Shown: in pieces, positions 1-8,027 of the stretch | How the letters are laid out: the number at the start of each line of letters is the position of its first letter | Numbering within the stretch: the stretch's first letter is position 1 | Source of the DNA: a virus | Lineage: Duplodnaviria; Heunggongvirae; Uroviricota; Caudoviricetes | Reading direction: 5' to 3' (one strand) | Virus record (IMG/VR): IMGVR_UViG_2537562091_000006 | DNA: 8,027 nucleotides | Program-made: the position numbers and the translations under genes | Notes under the pieces: generated by a model | Told to the model about the DNA's origin: nothing | The model's input: only the letters and a program-made list of their open reading frames with translations | Database searches by the model: none

Positions 1-144
1 TTAATTTCGATTATTTTTCCCGGATGGAAAATTCTTAGAAACCGATCACATACAGCTGCATTTATTAAGGTTATCATCCGTTTCGCTGAAAAACATAACC
101 CATAAAATGCTAGCTGTACCAGGAACCACCTCCTTAGCCTGTGT

Positions 145-171
145 AATCTCCCTTACACGGGCTTATTTTTT
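145..171. other. Phage attachment-site core, P2 type (attP or prophage att junction)
   Basis: Plus strand reads AATCTCCCTTACACGGGCTTATTTTTT; its reverse complement AAAAAATAAGCCCGTGTAAGGGAGATT matches the 27-nt P2 att core as I remember it. Position immediately beyond ogr fits P2 organisation (ogr-att). Recalled from memory, not searched. Confidence 0.55.
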
Positions 172-235
172 ACGCGTAATACAATGAAATAAAAGGATTT
201 ATTTCTGGTCACGTCCACACATTGACCACATCGAC

Positions 236-259
236 AAAAAAGCCCCTCGACTGAGGGGC
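236..259 (-). terminator. Rho-independent terminator downstream of ogr
   Basis: Minus strand reads GCCCCTC-AGTC-GAGGGGC followed by TTTTTT (stem 242-248 / 253-259, T-tract 236-241), starting 14 nt after the ogr stop codon. On the plus strand no U-tract follows the stem, so it acts on the minus strand. Confidence 0.7.
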
Positions 260-272
260 TTCCTGTTTGTAA

Positions 273-573: not shown

Positions 574-1737
574 TCACTCATTATCTTCTGTTTCGTACTC
601 CACATCAGAAAGCCTGACCTCAAGCTCTAAGGACGTCGTGAAGCCGCTATTATTCAGAAAATGTGTCACCTTAGTGATTGTCCAGTTCTGCTCGTCTATG
701 ACGCGCTTAAAGCCTGACACTTTGACCGGCGTTTCCGTGTAAATATCTGCACGACCGGTAGCCAGGATGATGGAGAACTCCGCAACGCCCCGTTGCAGTT
801 TATCCCACTTCGCCTGAGCGGCGCGCATGGCCTGCGCTTTTGTGGCATATACCGTAGTCAGGGCAAAAACGTTGTCAGCTTCACCGGCCATGTATTCACC
901 TTCGCGCGCTTCAGGTACTTTTGGCGCTTTCTTCTGCGTGACTGGTTTTGCTTTCGGGTGCTCCAGTGCACGCAGGTGTTTTTCTTTCTTTTTGCGTTTC
1001 AGTTTTACCTTCTGCTTTTGTGGTTTCGGGTCTTTGGTGTGTAACCACTTTGCCGTTACGCCGGTATAGGCTCCACGGTCAGCAATCGCAAAATGATGAC
1101 GGTCGCCGTCGCTGCGGGTGATGGTAATCTGCGGGATTTTTTTACCGCTGGCCGTCACCCCCTGCCCCGCTTTGAGAAACAGCAGTTTTCCCATTTTTAC
1201 CGACACCTCGCCGCCGTTGCGTTCAGCAAGACGGGTCAGGAATTTCAAATCGGACTCCTGCGACTGGTCGATGTGCGGGATTTTAATTCCGGCCAGTGAC
1301 GGAGCGACACTGGCTTCCAGCTTATTACGGGAGGCTATCGCCTCAACAATCGCACCGAGCGTGGTGTCATGCCATGAGCCTTCACGGCGGGAATTGAGCG
1401 TCCCGCGAAAATCTGCACTCCGGGCGCGGATGGTGACCACATCCGGTGCGCCCCGGTGTTCAACCTCATCAACGGTAAATTTCCCTTTGCATACCAGGGC
1501 AAAACCTTTCCAGCCGATATACACCGTCAGGACAGCGCCACGAACCGGCAGCCCGACCTGCCCGTCGGCATCGTTCAGTTCAATATCAAGCTGGTCAGCC
1601 TCAAAGCCCCGGTTATCCGTCAGGGTCATGCTCATCAGACGGTCGCTGATATTGCCGGTAATATCCCTGCTGTCGAGCATCAGCATGTAATCCGGCGTCA
1701 GCGTACTGCCTGCATCAAATGTCAGCGCATCCAGCAT
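574..1737 (-). CDS. D: Tail protein D (phage late control D family, 387 aa)
   Basis: 387-aa ORF in the position and with the length of P2 gpD, between U and ogr. Start ATG overlaps the U stop (TAATG). Contains a Lys-rich low-complexity stretch at residues ~235-278. Confidence 0.85.
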   Translation of the reverse strand: MLDALTFDAGSTLTPDYMLMLDSRDITGNISDRLMSMTLTDNRGFEADQLDIELNDADGQVGLPVRGAVLTVYIGWKGFALVCKGKFTVDEVEHRGAPDVVTIRARSADFRGTLNSRREGSWHDTTLGAIVEAIASRNKLEASVAPSLAGIKIPHIDQSQESDLKFLTRLAERNGGEVSVKMGKLLFLKAGQGVTASGKKIPQITITRSDGDRHHFAIADRGAYTGVTAKWLHTKDPKPQKQKVKLKRKKKEKHLRALEHPKAKPVTQKKAPKVPEAREGEYMAGEADNVFALTTVYATKAQAMRAAQAKWDKLQRGVAEFSIILATGRADIYTETPVKVSGFKRVIDEQNWTITKVTHFLNNSGFTTSLELEVRLSDVEYETEDNE

Positions 1738-2216
1738 TATCCCGCCTCCGTCATACCCGTGAATCTGGTCGCCATACTGCCAGCCTTACCGATGAGCGAC
1801 TCCGCCTGTTTACCGATATCGCCATAAAGCGCGGCCAGTGATTCATCCACGCGGGTGAGCGACAGCGTAAAATCAATTTTCCGGGGTGTGCCGTCTGCAA
1901 AGAAAATACTCCCTGTTTCACTCACCCTGCTGATGACATACATGCCGTAAATCATGCCGGAGCCATCCAGCAACGGCCACGCCCGGCCTTCCTCTGCCAT
2001 CAGTCTGAGCGTGGTCATCGTCAGCTTGCCGCCGGTCAGTTCGGGATAAAGCACACCGGCAAGCGTGATGTTTTCCTCGCCAACACCGAGAAACTGAAAG
2101 GCATCCCGTTTACCGATACGGGAATTTGACGGCCAGCGATAATCTGATTCACGCTGCATGGTCTGGTGTGGCAGCGTCTGGCGCATAAAAACAAACATAC
2201 CTAACGCGAGCATCAT
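1737..2216 (-). CDS. U: Tail protein U (159 aa)
   Basis: 159-aa ORF matching P2 gpU in length and position. AAGGAGGTG Shine-Dalgarno sits just upstream of the start at 2216. Stop overlaps the D start. Confidence 0.85.
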   Translation of the reverse strand: MMLALGMFVFMRQTLPHQTMQRESDYRWPSNSRIGKRDAFQFLGVGEENITLAGVLYPELTGGKLTMTTLRLMAEEGRAWPLLDGSGMIYGMYVISRVSETGSIFFADGTPRKIDFTLSLTRVDESLAALYGDIGKQAESLIGKAGSMATRFTGMTEAG

Positions 2217-2230
2217 TTTTCGTCACCTCC

Positions 2231-4678
2231 TTAACCGTCATGCATCATGCTGGCACGGGCGCGCGCACGTTTATCCCGCTCGTATTTTTCGAGCGCATCC
2301 TGTAACTGGCGGTCAAGCTGTGTCCCCGGCGCAGTACCACCCGTCAGGCTGATGTGATATTCGTTTTTACTCTGGTCCACATAAGAGCGGCCAGCCGGTG
2401 CCGTGACCGGCTGATAAGCCTGATAGCCTGCATAAGAGCTGGTCGCCGGAATATAACCACCGGTGCCATACGTGGCGGCATGAGTTCTGGCGGCGGTCTG
2501 GTCAAGTGTGTCTGACTCTTTGTTGATGACCCCGAGCTTTTCCAGTACCCAGTCAATACCGCTGCGCAGTTTGTTGAACGCATTAAGCGGCAGCATCAGC
2601 GCGTCAGCCAGTGCCTGCCCGAACATGACGCCCGTGTCACGGCAACGGTTCAGGGTGTCCTGTGTGGCTTTGACCGGGGCAATCAGGTTTTTAAACCACT
2701 GCCACGCGGCCTGTAACTTTTCGCCCAGCCAGTCAAACACCGGTTTCAGTGGCGTGAACAGCTCCCCCACCGGCGCAAATGCCGCTTTCAGCCCTTCCAC
2801 CACACCGCCAAAGAATGCGCTGACAGGCTCCCAGTATTTACGGATAAGCAACGCCCCGGCGACAATGGCGGCCACCACGGCCACAACCGGCCAGCTAATC
2901 GCCCCGATGGCCGTCATAACAGCACTGCCAACCGTCATGAAGATTGCCCCCATTGCGCCTGCTGCCGCGATAATGGCATTAATGCCGGTGATAACCGGCC
3001 ATGCTACAAGACCAATGGCACCGATGATGCCAATAAGCGCCAGCGCGCCACCGACAATGAGGCCGATGGTTGACGCCAGTGATTTGTTTTTCTGGATCCA
3101 GCCGTCGAGTTTTAACACATACTTTGTGGCCGTCTGAGTGAGTTTACGCAGTGCGCCTTCCTGCTGGTCAAACAGGTCTGTCCCCACCGCCTCATAAGCG
3201 GACTGAAACTCCTTAAAGTCACCGCCGAGGTTGTCCTGCATGATATTTACCAGCTCGGCGGTCTTCCCGTCTGAGGCTTTAAACGCAGCGGTCAGTTTGT
3301 CCAGCTTTCCGGTTGAGGCGGCAGTCATCAGCACGGCGGCGGCTGAGCTGGCCTCCTCCCCGAAAATGGTTTTCATGTATTCAGCCTGCTGGGCAGTACC
3401 GAGCCGATTTTTCTCAAAACTGGCCTGCATTTCTTTCAGAATGGTAAATATTGGTCGGGTGTTTCCCTTGCTGTCTGAGGTTTTCACACCAAGCTCTTTC
3501 AGTGCATCCCATGCTTTTCCCGTCGGTGCCTGCAGGCGGCTTAACACGGCACGGCTTCCCGTCCCCGCCATTGAACCGGTAATTTTTGCATCATGCAGCG
3601 CCCCGACCATTGCGGCGGTTTCTTCAATGCTGACACCGGCATTTTTTGCCACAGGTGCGGCATAGGTCAGCGCATCGCTCATGCCGTCAAAATCGGCGGC
3701 GGTTTTGTTCATCGTCATGGAGAGAACATCCCCGATATGAGCGACCTTATCGTTTGAAAGCTGAAAGGCGGATTTCATCCCCATCAACAGGGCGGCGTTT
3801 TCTTCCATCGTGCGACGGTTCGCCAGCGCCATATTCAGCGTGACCGGCGTTGCCGCCTGAATGGCATCAACATCCCCACCGGCTTTCGCAATGATAATCT
3901 GCGCACCGGCTGCATCATCCGCCGAGGCGGCGGTGTTGTCGCCGAGCTGGCGCGCCTGTTTGCGTAATGCGGCCATTTCGGCGGAGTCTTTTGCCGCACC
4001 GAGCACAGCCTGCAATTCTGAGTTTTTCTGCGCAAACTCATAACCGGGCATCAGCAGCTTAACTCCGGCCATCGTTCCCGCAGCAGCTATCCCCACACCG
4101 GCAGCGCCCACTGAGGCCATATTTCCGGCCAGTTCCTTTCCGGCCTGATAACGCTGTTTTACTGCGTTAAGTTTTGCCTGTTGTGCACTGACACGCGCCA
4201 GTGCGTCACGCTGACGGTTAAGCTGTGCGGTGGTTTCACTGATACGGTTTTTCAGTCCCTGCTCATCATGTGCAAGATTGCGGGTATTAATTCCCACAGC
4301 GGCCAGTTCCCGCTGCTGGCGTTTAACGGAGTCCGTCAGGCGGTTATATTTCGCCTGTAAGTCCTCCGCCGCACGCTTTGCGGATTCCAGCACTTTCGCC
4401 TGAGCACGGGTCGGACGTTCGGTGTTTTTAAACTGTGTGGCAAGGGCTTCGGCCTCCTGCCGTGCCTTTTCAAGTGCATGACCAGTCACGGCGAGCTGTG
4501 CACTGGTCTTGCGAAATCCCTCAATACGGGATGCCTGACCGTTCAGCTCGCGCAGTGATTTTTGTGTTTCCCGGATATCCCCCGACAGCGATTTGCTCGC
4601 TGTGCGGATGGATTTAAACGGGCGGGATGCCTGGTCAACAGCCCTGAGCAATACCTGTAATTTTACATTGTTACTCAT
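2231..4678 (-). CDS. T: Tail tape measure protein T (815 aa)
   Basis: 815-aa ORF, the P2 gpT length. N-terminal ~190 residues are Q/R/A/E/L-rich (coiled-coil-like), followed by a long Gly/Ala/Ile-rich hydrophobic block (residues ~534-616). ATG at 4676-4678 overlaps the E+E' stop. Lies directly after the frameshifted chaperone pair, the typical tape-measure position. Confidence 0.9.
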   Translation of the reverse strand: MSNNVKLQVLLRAVDQASRPFKSIRTASKSLSGDIRETQKSLRELNGQASRIEGFRKTSAQLAVTGHALEKARQEAEALATQFKNTERPTRAQAKVLESAKRAAEDLQAKYNRLTDSVKRQQRELAAVGINTRNLAHDEQGLKNRISETTAQLNRQRDALARVSAQQAKLNAVKQRYQAGKELAGNMASVGAAGVGIAAAGTMAGVKLLMPGYEFAQKNSELQAVLGAAKDSAEMAALRKQARQLGDNTAASADDAAGAQIIIAKAGGDVDAIQAATPVTLNMALANRRTMEENAALLMGMKSAFQLSNDKVAHIGDVLSMTMNKTAADFDGMSDALTYAAPVAKNAGVSIEETAAMVGALHDAKITGSMAGTGSRAVLSRLQAPTGKAWDALKELGVKTSDSKGNTRPIFTILKEMQASFEKNRLGTAQQAEYMKTIFGEEASSAAAVLMTAASTGKLDKLTAAFKASDGKTAELVNIMQDNLGGDFKEFQSAYEAVGTDLFDQQEGALRKLTQTATKYVLKLDGWIQKNKSLASTIGLIVGGALALIGIIGAIGLVAWPVITGINAIIAAAGAMGAIFMTVGSAVMTAIGAISWPVVAVVAAIVAGALLIRKYWEPVSAFFGGVVEGLKAAFAPVGELFTPLKPVFDWLGEKLQAAWQWFKNLIAPVKATQDTLNRCRDTGVMFGQALADALMLPLNAFNKLRSGIDWVLEKLGVINKESDTLDQTAARTHAATYGTGGYIPATSSYAGYQAYQPVTAPAGRSYVDQSKNEYHISLTGGTAPGTQLDRQLQDALEKYERDKRARARASMMHDG

Positions 4679-5098
4679 TCGTGTTTCCGCTTCGCCGGAG
4701 CGCCTTTTCGCGCCATGTGATGAGTTCGGTCAGGCTCATGGGATACAGTTCTGATGGCGGCCAGTGAAATATCACTGCCACATCCGCCATCAGGTCATCG
4801 ACCGAGAGATTTTTCGGAAACGTCACTGCACCGAGTTCGGCGACAAAAAACCGACCACCTTACCGGCCAGCGCCACAAGGTCAGGCAGTTCCAGTGCGGC
4901 GACTTCCTGCTCGGTCAGCATCGGTGCAGTCATGCGCGGCAGCACCTTAATCAGTGCATCGACTTCGGAGTTCGCGACCGCAGCCAGACTGACACCGCGC
5001 AGCGTCCCGGCGTTAGGTTTCATCAGCGTGACCTGTTCGATAACCTGCTCACCACGTTTGACCGGATTGTCCAGGGTAATGACGTTTTCTTTGTTCAT
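4671..5098 (-). CDS. Tail assembly chaperone E+E' (142 aa, made by -1 programmed frameshift at 4844-4850)
   Basis: After a -1 shift on T TTT TTG the minus strand reads ...VAELGAVTFPKNLSVDDLMADVAVIFHWPPSELYPMSLTELITWREKALRRSGNTNE* with stop TAA at 4671-4673, overlapping the T start. 85 + 57 = 142 aa, the P2 E+E' length. The -1 frame is open for exactly this stretch. Confidence 0.8.
4823..5098 (-). CDS. E: Tail assembly chaperone E (91 aa, zero-frame product)
   Basis: 91-aa ORF ending ...AGKVVGFLSPNSVQ*, located between FII and T as in P2. Contains the slippery heptamer near its 3' end. Confidence 0.85.
   Translation of the reverse strand: MNKENVITLDNPVKRGEQVIEQVTLMKPNAGTLRGVSLAAVANSEVDALIKVLPRMTAPMLTEQEVAALELPDLVALAGKVVGFLSPNSVQ
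4844..4850 (-). other. -1 programmed ribosomal frameshift slippery heptamer (T TTT TTG)
   Basis: Minus strand GGT TTT TTG in the E zero frame (plus strand CAAAAAA at 4844-4850), 8 codons before the E stop. It is exactly where the E' reading frame opens. Confidence 0.8.
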
Positions 5099-5126
5099 GG
5101 TTTTCTCACTTCTGAATCGGGGTTAA

Positions 5127-5147
5127 CCGGTCAGCCAGGCTGACCGG
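5127..5147 (-). promoter_or_regulatory. GC-rich perfect hairpin in the FII-E intergenic region (possible attenuator or mRNA processing/stability element)
   Basis: CCGGTCAGCC-A-GGCTGACCGG is a perfect 10-bp inverted repeat in the 56-bp gap between the FII stop (5155) and the E start (5098). No U-tract follows on the transcribed strand, so it is not a canonical intrinsic terminator. Confidence 0.4.
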
Positions 5148-5154
5148 ATGAAAA

Positions 5155-5673
5155 TCACAGGCCGATATTGCGGCGGTGTTGCTCCAGCCGGTCGACGCCG
5201 TTCACCTTCTCAATCATGTTGATGGTGTCAATTTCGACCAGCTCCTTACCGTCCATCGTCAGCCGGAAATAGGTGCAGACCACGGAGATTTTCGACTCGG
5301 TGTCTTCTCCCTGTTTACCCTCGCCGGTGTCGATTTCTTTCTGACGTCCACGCATGACCACCTCGACGGCCACCGTTTCGCCGGTATCGTCACGCTGGTA
5401 AGAGCCTGCAAAACGAATCGGTACGGCATCCACACCGGTTGCGGCGTAAAGTTCCCAGATAACCGAATCCGGGAAGCCCCCGAGCGACCACTCCATTGAC
5501 AGCGCATCGTCATCAAGGCCGAGGTCTACCGGTGCGCTGCCGTTCATCCCCGCACCGCGATAGTTTTCGAGCTTACGGGTCAGTTTTGGCAGCGTGACGG
5601 ACTTTGCAACGCCCTGATAGCTGTAGCCGTTCAGAAAGACGTTCATTAACTTGAGTTTGCGCGGCATTGCCAT
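5155..5673 (-). CDS. FII: Tail tube protein FII (172 aa)
   Basis: 172-aa ORF directly downstream of the sheath gene, with the P2 gpFII length. AAGGAG Shine-Dalgarno precedes the ATG at 5673. Confidence 0.85.
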   Translation of the reverse strand: MAMPRKLKLMNVFLNGYSYQGVAKSVTLPKLTRKLENYRGAGMNGSAPVDLGLDDDALSMEWSLGGFPDSVIWELYAATGVDAVPIRFAGSYQRDDTGETVAVEVVMRGRQKEIDTGEGKQGEDTESKISVVCTYFRLTMDGKELVEIDTINMIEKVNGVDRLEQHRRNIGL

Positions 5674-5685
5674 CGGTCAGGCTCC

Positions 5686-6876
5686 TTAATTGCTGTTAAC
5701 CGAGGTGACCAGATTTGCCAGGTATTTATCGGTAATACGCTGGCGCAGGGTCAGGTTTTCAAGAGGAGGCACCGGTGTATAGTCGTAGTCGATATACAGT
5801 TTTCCGGCCTTGAGGGTTTCCGCATCGTTGGATTCTTCGCTGAACCAGCAGGTCGCATCCACGATATAGCCGTTTGTTTTCAGCTCACGGAATTTGGCAT
5901 TGATGCCGTCAACAATGTCGCGAATCAGCGTTGCGGTGATGGGCTTGTCCACCGCCCACATGTGCGCCTCAGCCATCGTGTCGGCCAGCACCTGCGCGGT
6001 GCGGGTGTAGTTTTCAAAGAGGAACAGCGGGTCATCAGAGCAGGTACGGTTACCCCAGAAGCGGAAACCGTCGCGGCGAATCAGCGTTGTGACGCCTGAC
6101 TCGTTAAGCAGGTCAGCATCGGTGCCGGACTCCTGCAAATCCCAGAATACAGATGCGCTGATACCGGTAGCACCGTTTACCCCGACGTTGGACAGCGTTT
6201 TATGCCAGCCCTGCTCCTGGTCGATTTTAGCGCGCAGACCCAGCGCACGGGCAGTGGCATACGCGGTGGCGGTGGTACTGGTGACCGTATCCCATGCGAG
6301 GAAATCCGGCCAGATGACCATCAGCTCACGCTGGCTGAAATTCTGGCGGTAGGCTTTCACCTCGGAAATGGTCTTACAGCCCCATGCGCTGATATATCCG
6401 AAAGCGCGCAGCTTCTGACAGACGGATGCCAGTGCAACAGCCACCTCTTTGGTATCCAGTCCCGGCACACCGAGAATACGCGGTTTAACACCGGTTACCG
6501 ACTCCGCCGCCAGCAGGGCTTTCAGTCCGGTGTACTGACCGTTTTCGTCGGTGGTGCCGATGATATTGGAAACGGTCTGCGCGAGTTTCGTTTCCTCGTC
6601 ATCACCGGTGCCGTCTTCCACGCGCACGACAACGGTGACCGGTTTTGACTGGTCAGCGATGGCCTGCAACGATGCCGCCAGCGTGCCTTTTTTACCGGCC
6701 TTTGCAATTGCGCTCTGCACATTGGTAATCAGCACAGGTTTATTGAGGGGGAAGGTTTCCGCATCCGCATCGCTGGCCGTGCAGACCATGCCGACAATGG
6801 CAGTGGATACGGTGGAAATGACGCGGGTGCCGTCGTTAATCTCCAGCACCTGCACGCCGTGATGATAGTCACTCAT
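5686..6876 (-). CDS. FI: Contractile tail sheath protein FI (396 aa)
   Basis: 396-aa ORF (P2 gpFI length) at the head of the FI-FII-E-T-U-D operon. GGAG lies about 10 nt upstream of the ATG. Confidence 0.85.
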   Translation of the reverse strand: MSDYHHGVQVLEINDGTRVISTVSTAIVGMVCTASDADAETFPLNKPVLITNVQSAIAKAGKKGTLAASLQAIADQSKPVTVVVRVEDGTGDDEETKLAQTVSNIIGTTDENGQYTGLKALLAAESVTGVKPRILGVPGLDTKEVAVALASVCQKLRAFGYISAWGCKTISEVKAYRQNFSQRELMVIWPDFLAWDTVTSTTATAYATARALGLRAKIDQEQGWHKTLSNVGVNGATGISASVFWDLQESGTDADLLNESGVTTLIRRDGFRFWGNRTCSDDPLFLFENYTRTAQVLADTMAEAHMWAVDKPITATLIRDIVDGINAKFRELKTNGYIVDATCWFSEESNDAETLKAGKLYIDYDYTPVPPLENLTLRQRITDKYLANLVTSVNSN

Positions 6877-6935: not shown

Positions 6936-7529
6936 CTATTTGTCCCGGTTGGCTAAGGGATGACACAATTTATTTTTTGTCACGGAGGCGGGGAATTTTT
7001 TATAGAGCGTGGACAGGCCAATATCAAAAATCAGTGCCACGCGTTGACGTGATTCCCCTGCAGCCAGCAAACGCCCGGCCTGCTCCCACTCACTCGCGGT
7101 GAGTTTCGGACGTCTGCCACCAATACGACCTTTGGCTCTGGCCGCTTCCAGTCCGGCGCGTGTCCGCTCGACAATGAGTTCTCGTTCCATTTCGGCCAGG
7201 GCACCCATCACATGAAAGAAAAAACGCCCCATCGGCGTGCTGGTATCAATAGCATCCGTCAGGCTGCGAAAATTAACGCCGCGTTCGCGCAGCTCCTCAA
7301 CCAGAATGACCAGATGCCGCATACTACGCCCCAGCCGGTCCAGCTTCCAGACTACCAGTGTATCCCCCTCCGATAATGTCCTGAGCAGTTTTTTCAGTCC
7401 CGGCCTGTCGGACTTCGTGCCGCTGATTTTGTCCTCAAAAATCAGCTCACATCCTGCGCACTCCAGCGCGTTACGCTGCAATTCCGTATTCTGGTCATTT
7501 GTTGACACGCGTACATAGCCAATAAGCAT
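6936..7529 (-). CDS. Serine DNA invertase, Hin/Gin/Cin/Pin family (site-specific recombinase, resolvase/invertase fold)
   Basis: N-terminus MLIGYVRVSTNDQNTELQRNAL carries the catalytic-Ser motif, followed by DTLVVWKLDRLGRS, MGRFFFHVMGALAEMERELIVERT and a C-terminal HTH (GLSTLYKKF); about 197 aa. Strong resemblance to Hin/Gin. Start taken at the second ATG (7529), which has GGGGG about 6 nt upstream; the track ORF starts 2 codons earlier at 7535. Confidence 0.85.
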   Translation of the reverse strand: MLIGYVRVSTNDQNTELQRNALECAGCELIFEDKISGTKSDRPGLKKLLRTLSEGDTLVVWKLDRLGRSMRHLVILVEELRERGVNFRSLTDAIDTSTPMGRFFFHVMGALAEMERELIVERTRAGLEAARAKGRIGGRRPKLTASEWEQAGRLLAAGESRQRVALIFDIGLSTLYKKFPASVTKNKLCHPLANRDK

Positions 7530-7556
7530 GAGCATCCCCCTGAATAAAAACCGGAG

Positions 7557-8027
7557 ATGATGCCAGTTGCCCGTTATCTCTGCATTTTCATAAACGTTGG
7601 TTTGGGAGAAGGTTCGGCATTACCCGTTGGCGTGCCTGTTCCGTGGCCTTCCGCCACTCCGCCAACAGGCTGGCTGAAATGCAACGGGGCGGCTTTTTCT
7701 GCTGAAGAATACCCGGAACTGGCAAAGGTTTACCCGACAAATAAATTGCCTGATTTACGCGGTGAGTTTATTAGGGGCTGGGATGACGGGCGTGGTATTG
7801 ATGCTGTACGTGCCTTGCTAAGTCTTCAGAATGGAGGAGTGGAATCACACACCCACCAAGGGCAGCTCTTCAGAGTTAGTGATTATCGTACAAAAGAATA
7901 CCAGCATCAGAAGTTATGGGGAAGAGGATATATTGCAAGCCTGACGCCGGGTGCTGATAGCCCACTTGATTTTGATGATTATTCTGTATCTTCTAATCCA
8001 AATGATATTTTGTCGGAATCAGAGTAA
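7557..8027 (+). CDS. Tail-fibre C-terminal variable segment (Sv'-like alternative exon of an invertible segment), probably silent in this orientation
   Basis: Translation contains LPVGVPVPWPSATPPTGWLKCNGAAFSAEEYPELAKVYP...PDLRGEFIRGWDDGRGIDAVRALLSLQNGGVESHTHQ, the conserved junction motif of Mu S / P1 S / lambda Stf-type tail-fibre C-terminal domains. The crossover site sits within its first codons, it has no convincing RBS, and it is on the strand opposite the late genes. The annotated ATG at 7557 is probably not a true start. Confidence 0.65.
   Translation: MMPVARYLCIFINVGLGEGSALPVGVPVPWPSATPPTGWLKCNGAAFSAEEYPELAKVYPTNKLPDLRGEFIRGWDDGRGIDAVRALLSLQNGGVESHTHQGQLFRVSDYRTKEYQHQKLWGRGYIASLTPGADSPLDFDDYSVSSNPNDILSESE
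7585..7610. other. 26-bp invertase crossover site (hix/gix/cix-like)
   Basis: TTTTCATAAACG TT GGTTTGGGAGAA: two imperfect inverted 12-bp half-sites (TTnTCnnAAAC) around a central TT/AA dinucleotide. Close to the gix/hix/cix sequences as I recall them. Lies 56 bp upstream of the invertase start and inside the 5' end of the tail-fibre segment ORF. Confidence 0.7.

Follow-up and report, generated by a model that had tools for sequence, protein, structure and literature searches.

The first 272 bases of the DNA analysed here are, with a probability of about 97%, the attR junction (P arm–core–host, on the ogr side) of a P2-like prophage inserted at the 3′ end of the small RNA gene cyaR. The whole stretch, 8,027 nucleotides long, is referred to as the window. 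As placed by comparison with annotated genomes, the insertion site is between yegQ (also named trhP) and yegR. We equate this yegQ–cyaR–yegR site with locI of E. coli C, the site classically favoured by P2, and we call the junction attR, by convention the name of the one that carries the P arm (POB′). The annotation of the left end of the window is thereby settled: bases 1–144 are host DNA, the prophage boundary is the core at 145–171, and the core lies inside the host gene cyaR, which annotators should neither overlook nor give to the phage.

Host origin of bases 1–144

Bases 1–144 were compared by megablast with 5,426 complete E. coli genomes. The segment was found in 5,424 of these, at a median of one place per genome; coverage was at least 80% in 5,422 of the 5,426, and identity was at least 99% in 5,402 records. 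In every annotated E. coli record inspected, yegQ ends one base before window base 1, and the segment is located between yegQ and yegR in the annotated records inspected. Bases 1–84 (plus strand), which run from the yegQ/trhP stop codon to the cyaR start, are E. coli intergenic DNA with the cyaR promoter region. Judged by these matches, the previously unplaced segment 1–144 is host yegQ–cyaR DNA that includes the cyaR promoter and the initial 60 bases of the gene.

The preliminary description had weighed two origins for this segment, the 3′ end of a P2-type int gene in a phage genome and host DNA at a prophage–host junction, and had preferred the junction. That preference was borne out: comparison with P2 int and with E. 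coli chromosomes gave no int alignment and a match to the E. coli chromosome downstream of yegQ.

If the window came from a free phage genome, bases 145–171 would be attP and bases 1–144 would comprise the P′ arm and the 3′ end of int. The core does adjoin ogr, as this arrangement would have it, and a GenBank record entitled ‘Phage TP’ (AY639599) contains bases 1–272. However, a sensitive blastn search of 50,697 phage records, with E values up to 10, gave no match of 1–144 to a P2-family int gene or to any other P2-family sequence. The matches obtained were chance ones to unrelated phages and a single full-length one, to AY639599. Ungapped identity between 1–144 and the 144 bases to the left of the P2 core was just 25/144, and the local alignment score of 1–144 against the P2 C–int–P′ region, which includes the P′ arm, fell inside the range obtained with shuffled sequences. 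An int 3′ end within 1–144 was rejected because there was no blastn similarity and the score was no better than that of shuffles. The source of the window is, moreover, a 2.49-Mb bacterial scaffold, described below. A free phage genome is therefore refuted, and we give it practically no chance.

The ‘Phage TP’ record deserves separate mention. Half of AY639599 (L002) is E. coli chromosome, namely the 3′ part of yegQ and cyaR, and its ‘putative protease’ CDS is identical at 365 of 366 positions to residues 88–453 of E. coli YegQ (TrhP). We rejected the record as proof of a phage origin for 1–144, as it is itself a prophage–host junction clone carrying host yegQ. Filed as a phage, it gives rise to false ‘phage’ matches for host DNA.

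The only open frame that had been remarked upon in this segment is frame 1 of bases 1–102. Translation agreed with the earlier account of it: the frame is open for 34 codons, contains no tyrosine, and is followed by TAA. We rejected it as a gene, since it is unannotated intergenic DNA in all the records inspected and overlaps the cyaR promoter and the 5′ end of cyaR.

A complete cyaR gene at the junction

The gene for the small regulatory RNA cyaR (ryeE), 87 nt in length, is present in its entirety at bases 85–171 on the plus strand. In a scan of the whole window against Rfam the sole match was CyaR_RyeE (RF00112) at 83–168 (+), which covered the full model (1–85) with a score of 100.7 bits, compared to a gathering score of 47 (E = 7.7e-20). 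Bases 85–171 are base-for-base those of the ncRNA cyaR (b4438) of E. coli K-12 MG1655, at 2167114–2167200. In E. coli the gene lies downstream of yegQ on the same strand; in Salmonella, cyaR is listed between yegQ and STM2137 (PMC2515195).

The minimum free energy fold of cyaR has two hairpins and a U-tail (z = −3.0). The small hairpin is at 121–134. The intrinsic terminator, at 136–171 on the plus strand, consists of a stem (136–146 paired with 153–163), a loop (147–152) and a U-tail (164–171); the terminator scan reported 11 pairs followed by TATTTTTT, and the same structure was seen in the Rfam consensus structure and in the fold. According to a passage in PMC9765468, Hfq binds the 3′ terminator module of Hfq-dependent sRNAs. 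Within this terminator, the att core takes in the two 3′-most bases of the 5′ stem arm and all that follows them (loop, complete 3′ stem arm and U-tail), while the host-only part of the terminator is the 5′ stem arm at 136–144, together with everything upstream. The overlap between the cyaR terminator and the att core had been overlooked in the preliminary description, and bases 1–144 are not anonymous host DNA.

We assume that the cyaR promoter is a class II CRP promoter. A candidate CRP site, TTAGA-N6-TCACA, is present at 35–50, centred ∼42 bp upstream of the annotated cyaR start; it has 2 mismatches, and 3.4 such matches are expected by chance per window. A candidate −10 element, TATCAT at 72–77, is statistically not distinctive, and both elements are inferred from position only. 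The promoter scan of the window found no full sigma-70 consensus promoter for cyaR, which would be expected of a CRP-dependent promoter without a −35 element, yet lends no support to it. The CRP dependence of cyaR is named in the title of Papenfort et al. 2008, as it appears among the works cited in PMC2515195.

The att core is shared by the host gene and the phage

Bases 145–171 of the window, AATCTCCCTTACACGGGCTTATTTTTT, form a 27-nt P2-type att core, to which no strand is assigned and which is here the core of attR. All 27 positions agree with the feature that the phage P2 genome record (NC_001895, 24356–24382) labels ‘attP’ or ‘Int attP core’. It occurs as a single copy in the window, where 0 chance matches are expected even if up to 3 mismatches are allowed. 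The preliminary description had recognised a 27-nt core here at the position of P2 attP, just past ogr and its terminator. The layout is as it stated, with ogr at 273–491 and the terminator at 239–262, both on the minus strand, and the match to the annotated P2 core is exact.

The limits of the core are given by two sets of matches. When the window was compared with the 50,697 phage records, base 145 was the exact start of all P2-family matches, and base 171 was the exact end of the matches to unoccupied host sites (H102 and H103). Host and phage homology therefore overlap over exactly these 27 bases, and on this evidence the core is common to the host attB, at the 3′ end of cyaR, and the phage attP. 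The core had earlier been described as marking the boundary of the element. It does so, and is more exactly a sequence that the host gene and the phage have in common. The position of the crossover inside the core is invisible from the sequence because both partners are identical there.

We scanned one genome per species for the exact 27-mer and found it in 21 places, in genomes labelled as Escherichia, Shigella, Kluyvera and Enterobacter hormaechei. The 27-mer is preceded by cyaR in 20 of the 21 places, the exception being the int-side junction of an E. ruysiae prophage. Therefore, the core is primarily the conserved terminator of a host sRNA, which has been copied by the phage.

The phage side of the junction

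To the right of the core, bases 172–272 are identical to the P2 P arm at 95 of 101 positions, and the differences from P2 are mostly found at 172–190, in the IHF region. Transfer of coordinates from the IHF protein_bind feature of P2 (L003 1526–1559) predicts the IHF-binding region of the P arm at 170–203, with no strand assigned. The Int arm-type binding sites are predicted at 207–234 on the minus strand, from the P2 protein_bind feature Int ‘P arm’ (L003 1563–1590), to which the window is identical in this interval. Read on the minus strand, the direct repeats of the Int arm are TGTGGACG at 212–219 and TGTGGTCA at 223–230; the consensus for P2-type arm sites is tgTGGaCa (PMC3448106).

The rho-independent terminator of ogr and the F operon lies at 239–262 (minus strand), by transfer of the P2 annotation (L003 1595–1618). 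The terminator scan found a hairpin of 9 pairs at 240–261, which also had a terminator-like score on the plus strand. Nearest to the junction among the phage genes is ogr itself, encoding the 72-aa late-gene activator at 273–491 on the minus strand (Pfam Ogr_Delta, E = 1.1e-21); its coordinates agree with those of ogrK of K-12 and of P2 ogr after alignment.

Beyond ogr is a block of P2 tail genes at 574–6876 on the minus strand, identified with Pfam and arranged in the same order as in P2 and in the prophage of E. coli DCE7. The block comprises D (574–1737; GPD), U (1737–2216; P2_GpU), the tape-measure gene T (2231–4678; PhageMin_Tail), E (4823–5098; Phage_TAC_7), the tube gene FII (5155–5673; Phage_tube) and the sheath gene FI (5686–6876; Phage_sheath). 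Just downstream of E, a reading frame of the P2 GpE family occupies 4671–4826 (minus strand), with PF06528 at the corresponding position of the source scaffold. The window then carries a gene for a 199-aa serine invertase at 6936–7535 on the minus strand (Pfam Resolvase and HTH_7) and, adjoining it on the opposite strand, the C-terminal segment of a tail fibre with a Collar domain (Pfam) at 7557–8027. The invertase and the tail-fibre segment constitute an invertible cassette where P2 has Z/fun, and alternative arrangements are seen in related contigs.

Chromosomal context and extent of the prophage

The window is an exact substring of the 2.49-Mb scaffold GL872249.1 (assembly GCA_000191015.1), in which it is the reverse complement of L009 6652–14678; in scaffold coordinates, window base 1 falls at 1,905,624 and the core at 1,905,768–1,905,794. 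On the scaffold, yegQ, yegP, baeR, baeS, mdtD and mdtC are located to the left of window base 1. To the right of base 8027 there are P2 tail-fibre, baseplate and lysis genes, extending to at least 14.6 kb from the junction. With host genes on the left and phage genes on the right in a bacterial scaffold, the window is therefore chromosomal.

A join of this kind could also be an assembly chimera or a chance juxtaposition of host and phage DNA at a short repeat, and an assembler might in principle be misled by a 27-nt repeat of which each lysogen has two copies. However, when bases 60–272 were used as a junction-spanning query, at least 80% of the query was covered in 1,273 of the 5,426 complete E. 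coli genomes (∼23%). The presence of the junction in so many independently finished genomes refutes a chimera, the probability of which is negligible. The junction is likewise found in K-12 MG1655 and in 5 of the 6 contigs listed with an identical tape-measure gene. Given that ∼23% of finished E. coli genomes have the junction, it opens no new question.

The far end of such an element can be seen in E. coli DCE7 (NZ_CP090611), the prophage of which is 97.6% identical across the whole window. The order of the element and its flanks in DCE7 is yegQ/cyaR, ogr ... Q ... A, B, cox, C, int, yegR. Two exact copies of the 27-mer, on the same strand and 33,537 bp apart, bracket the interval int ... ogr. 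The DCE7 Int is identical to P2 Int at 335 of 337 residues. Its int-side junction reads P′ arm–core–native yegR-side flank, and its ogr-side junction is as in the window. In E. ruysiae, both junction types are found on one contig, ∼32.5 kb apart if the contig is a circular chromosome.

We noted that the DCE7 prophage contains, between the replication and portal genes (L004 14956–20436), IS5, two reverse-transcriptase genes and a ‘retron Ec48 family effector’. The genes of this variable region are defence cargo in a P2 hotspot. The portal gene is frameshifted, a sign of decay.

The completeness of the window prophage is a separate matter from the identity of the junction. The element could be a defective remnant at the same junction, with 145–272 a fossil attR that has lost attL and int, as in K-12; this would be compatible with the junction as identified and concerns only how complete the prophage is. 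There is precedent in K-12 MG1655, where exactly this junction is followed by just ogrK and a D fragment (PR-X, ∼0.63 kb), and in the source scaffold no genes are called over ∼1 kb of the tail-fibre region (L009 5635–6652). Several observations run counter to a remnant: P2 late genes run without interruption through the 8 kb of the window and match their Pfam families over the full length; the scaffold goes on through the baseplate and lysis genes noted above; 1,533 of the complete E. coli genomes contain 80% or more of the full 8-kb window; and the near-identical DCE7 element spans int to ogr, though with the IS5 insertion and the frameshifted portal gene. We consider a remnant improbable, and the attR junction of a P2-like prophage at cyaR is the same under either state of the far end.

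Variation at the site in other genomes

Unoccupied E. coli sites have a native flank on the right of the core that is similar to the phage P arm, as compared over window bases 172–238. The native E. coli flank and the P arm share the 15-mer CATTGACCACATCGA without mismatch, and one Int arm repeat lies within it. Identity between the two was 30/34 in E. coli (YY76-1, L006 1613–1690; O157 PV15-279, L001 4172–4250) and 44/51 in Escherichia sp. MOD1-EC7003 (L034), where the similarity reaches into the IHF region. Against shuffled sequences, these similarities had z values of 7–17. In Kluyvera, Enterobacter and E. ruysiae, the sequence on this side of the core showed no P-arm similarity of this kind. 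From these alignments, the native E. coli flank looks like what is left, after decay, of the P arm of an earlier P2-like insertion, and by now it is the usual flank in E. coli. If so, the int-side junction in lysogens would read P′ arm–core–pseudo-P arm.

The tail module of the window is also found at another site. The prophage in GCA_032349575.1 (L012 10001–15542) has an identical 815-aa tape measure and the same tail block and ends beside fieF/pfkA, not yegQ/cyaR. Its homology to the window starts at base 184, and the att core and the inner part of the P arm differ. Therefore, the same tail module is joined to a different integration module in this genome. A cpxP–fieF site is listed for Wphi1 (PMC3032704).

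In E. coli HS-01 (L007 2595–3100), the cyaR match ends inside the core, after window base 153, and there are ∼330 extra bases between cyaR and yegR. As the match stops after 153, the 3′ arm and U-tail of the canonical cyaR terminator are replaced in this strain by unrelated AT-rich sequence. The HS-01 insertion may be the scar of another element at the same target.

Integration and transcription at the junction

What was observed is the sequence identity, which genes are present and where they lie in the host; the recombination chemistry and the expression of cyaR at the junction are matters that we infer. By analogy with the known P2 system, a P2-type tyrosine integrase together with IHF would carry out recombination between the 27-nt attP core and its exact counterpart in the cyaR terminator. 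As phage and host do not differ within the core, this shared sequence regenerates cyaR (85–171) complete and unaltered on integration, at the ogr-side junction, where cyaR lies. The prophage would follow cyaR in the order P arm, ogr terminator, ogr and tail genes. A second core would be expected ∼32–34 kb to the right, beside int and yegR, on the supposition that the far end is intact in this genome.

It is conceivable, albeit very unlikely in our estimation, that cyaR read-through in lysogens would proceed in the direction of ogr, which is convergent with cyaR, and cross the IHF and Int arm sites in the P arm of attR on the way. Were this to occur, the recombination site would be transcribed under cAMP-CRP control, and either excision or the expression of ogr could be affected. 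One part of PMC9765468 gives a value of 41% for read-through of the CyaR terminator in a reporter construct. Read-through transcripts from cyaR would probably be stopped before ogr by the hairpin at 240–261.

Comparison with known systems

A close comparison at this site is the cryptic prophage PR-X (ogrK–yegZ), which lies next to cyaR in K-12 MG1655. Bases 1–300 of the window have a single mismatch to K-12, which has the same host flank, cyaR, core, P arm and ogr. PR-X, however, keeps only ∼0.63 kb (ogr and yegZ, a 3′ fragment of D), whereas the window has a full tail block of more than 7.5 kb. Barreiro and Haggard-Ljungquist reportedly described the K-12 remnant in 1992 as ‘part of D, ogr and attR’ at a locI-like site. 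The left end of PR-X in RefSeq (L005 2184–2812) is equivalent to window base 154, which is 9 bases inside the core and inside cyaR and coincides with neither end of the core.

Compared to P2 itself (NC_001895), the window has an identical 27-nt core, a P arm that matches at 95 of 101 positions, the same Int arm repeats and the same ogr terminator. The gene order ogr–D–U–T–E–FII–FI is also the same. The window differs from P2 in being the integrated form (P arm–core–host) rather than attP, and in carrying a serine invertase and tail-fibre segment in place of Z/fun. With 95–96% identity in this region, the window prophage is a relative of P2 and not P2 itself.

The P2-like junction at cyaR is already documented, very frequent and ordinary. 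Table 2 of the E. coli W genome paper gives ‘cyaR RNA’ as the insertion site of Wphi2, which is P2-type, in strain W, and gives the same site for ogr-D′ in K-12 and for P2*B in strain B (PMC3032704). Wphi2 of E. coli W and P2*B of E. coli B, likened to the window prophage through this site listing, have the same insertion target and phage type in different strains.

The junction is also a textbook case of a temperate phage that targets the 3′ end of a conserved RNA gene and brings with it a replacement copy of this end. In phage 186 (tRNA-Ile), in Fels-2 and SopEPhi (ssrA), and in the P2-like ‘Rybb’ prophages (rybB), the att core similarly duplicates the 3′ end of an RNA gene, and the gene is rebuilt (PMC3448106, PMC3032704). 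In contrast to tRNA-like targets, the target in the window is the terminator of an Hfq-dependent sRNA and, unlike that of phage 186, the integrase type is the P2 arm-site type (PMC3448106).
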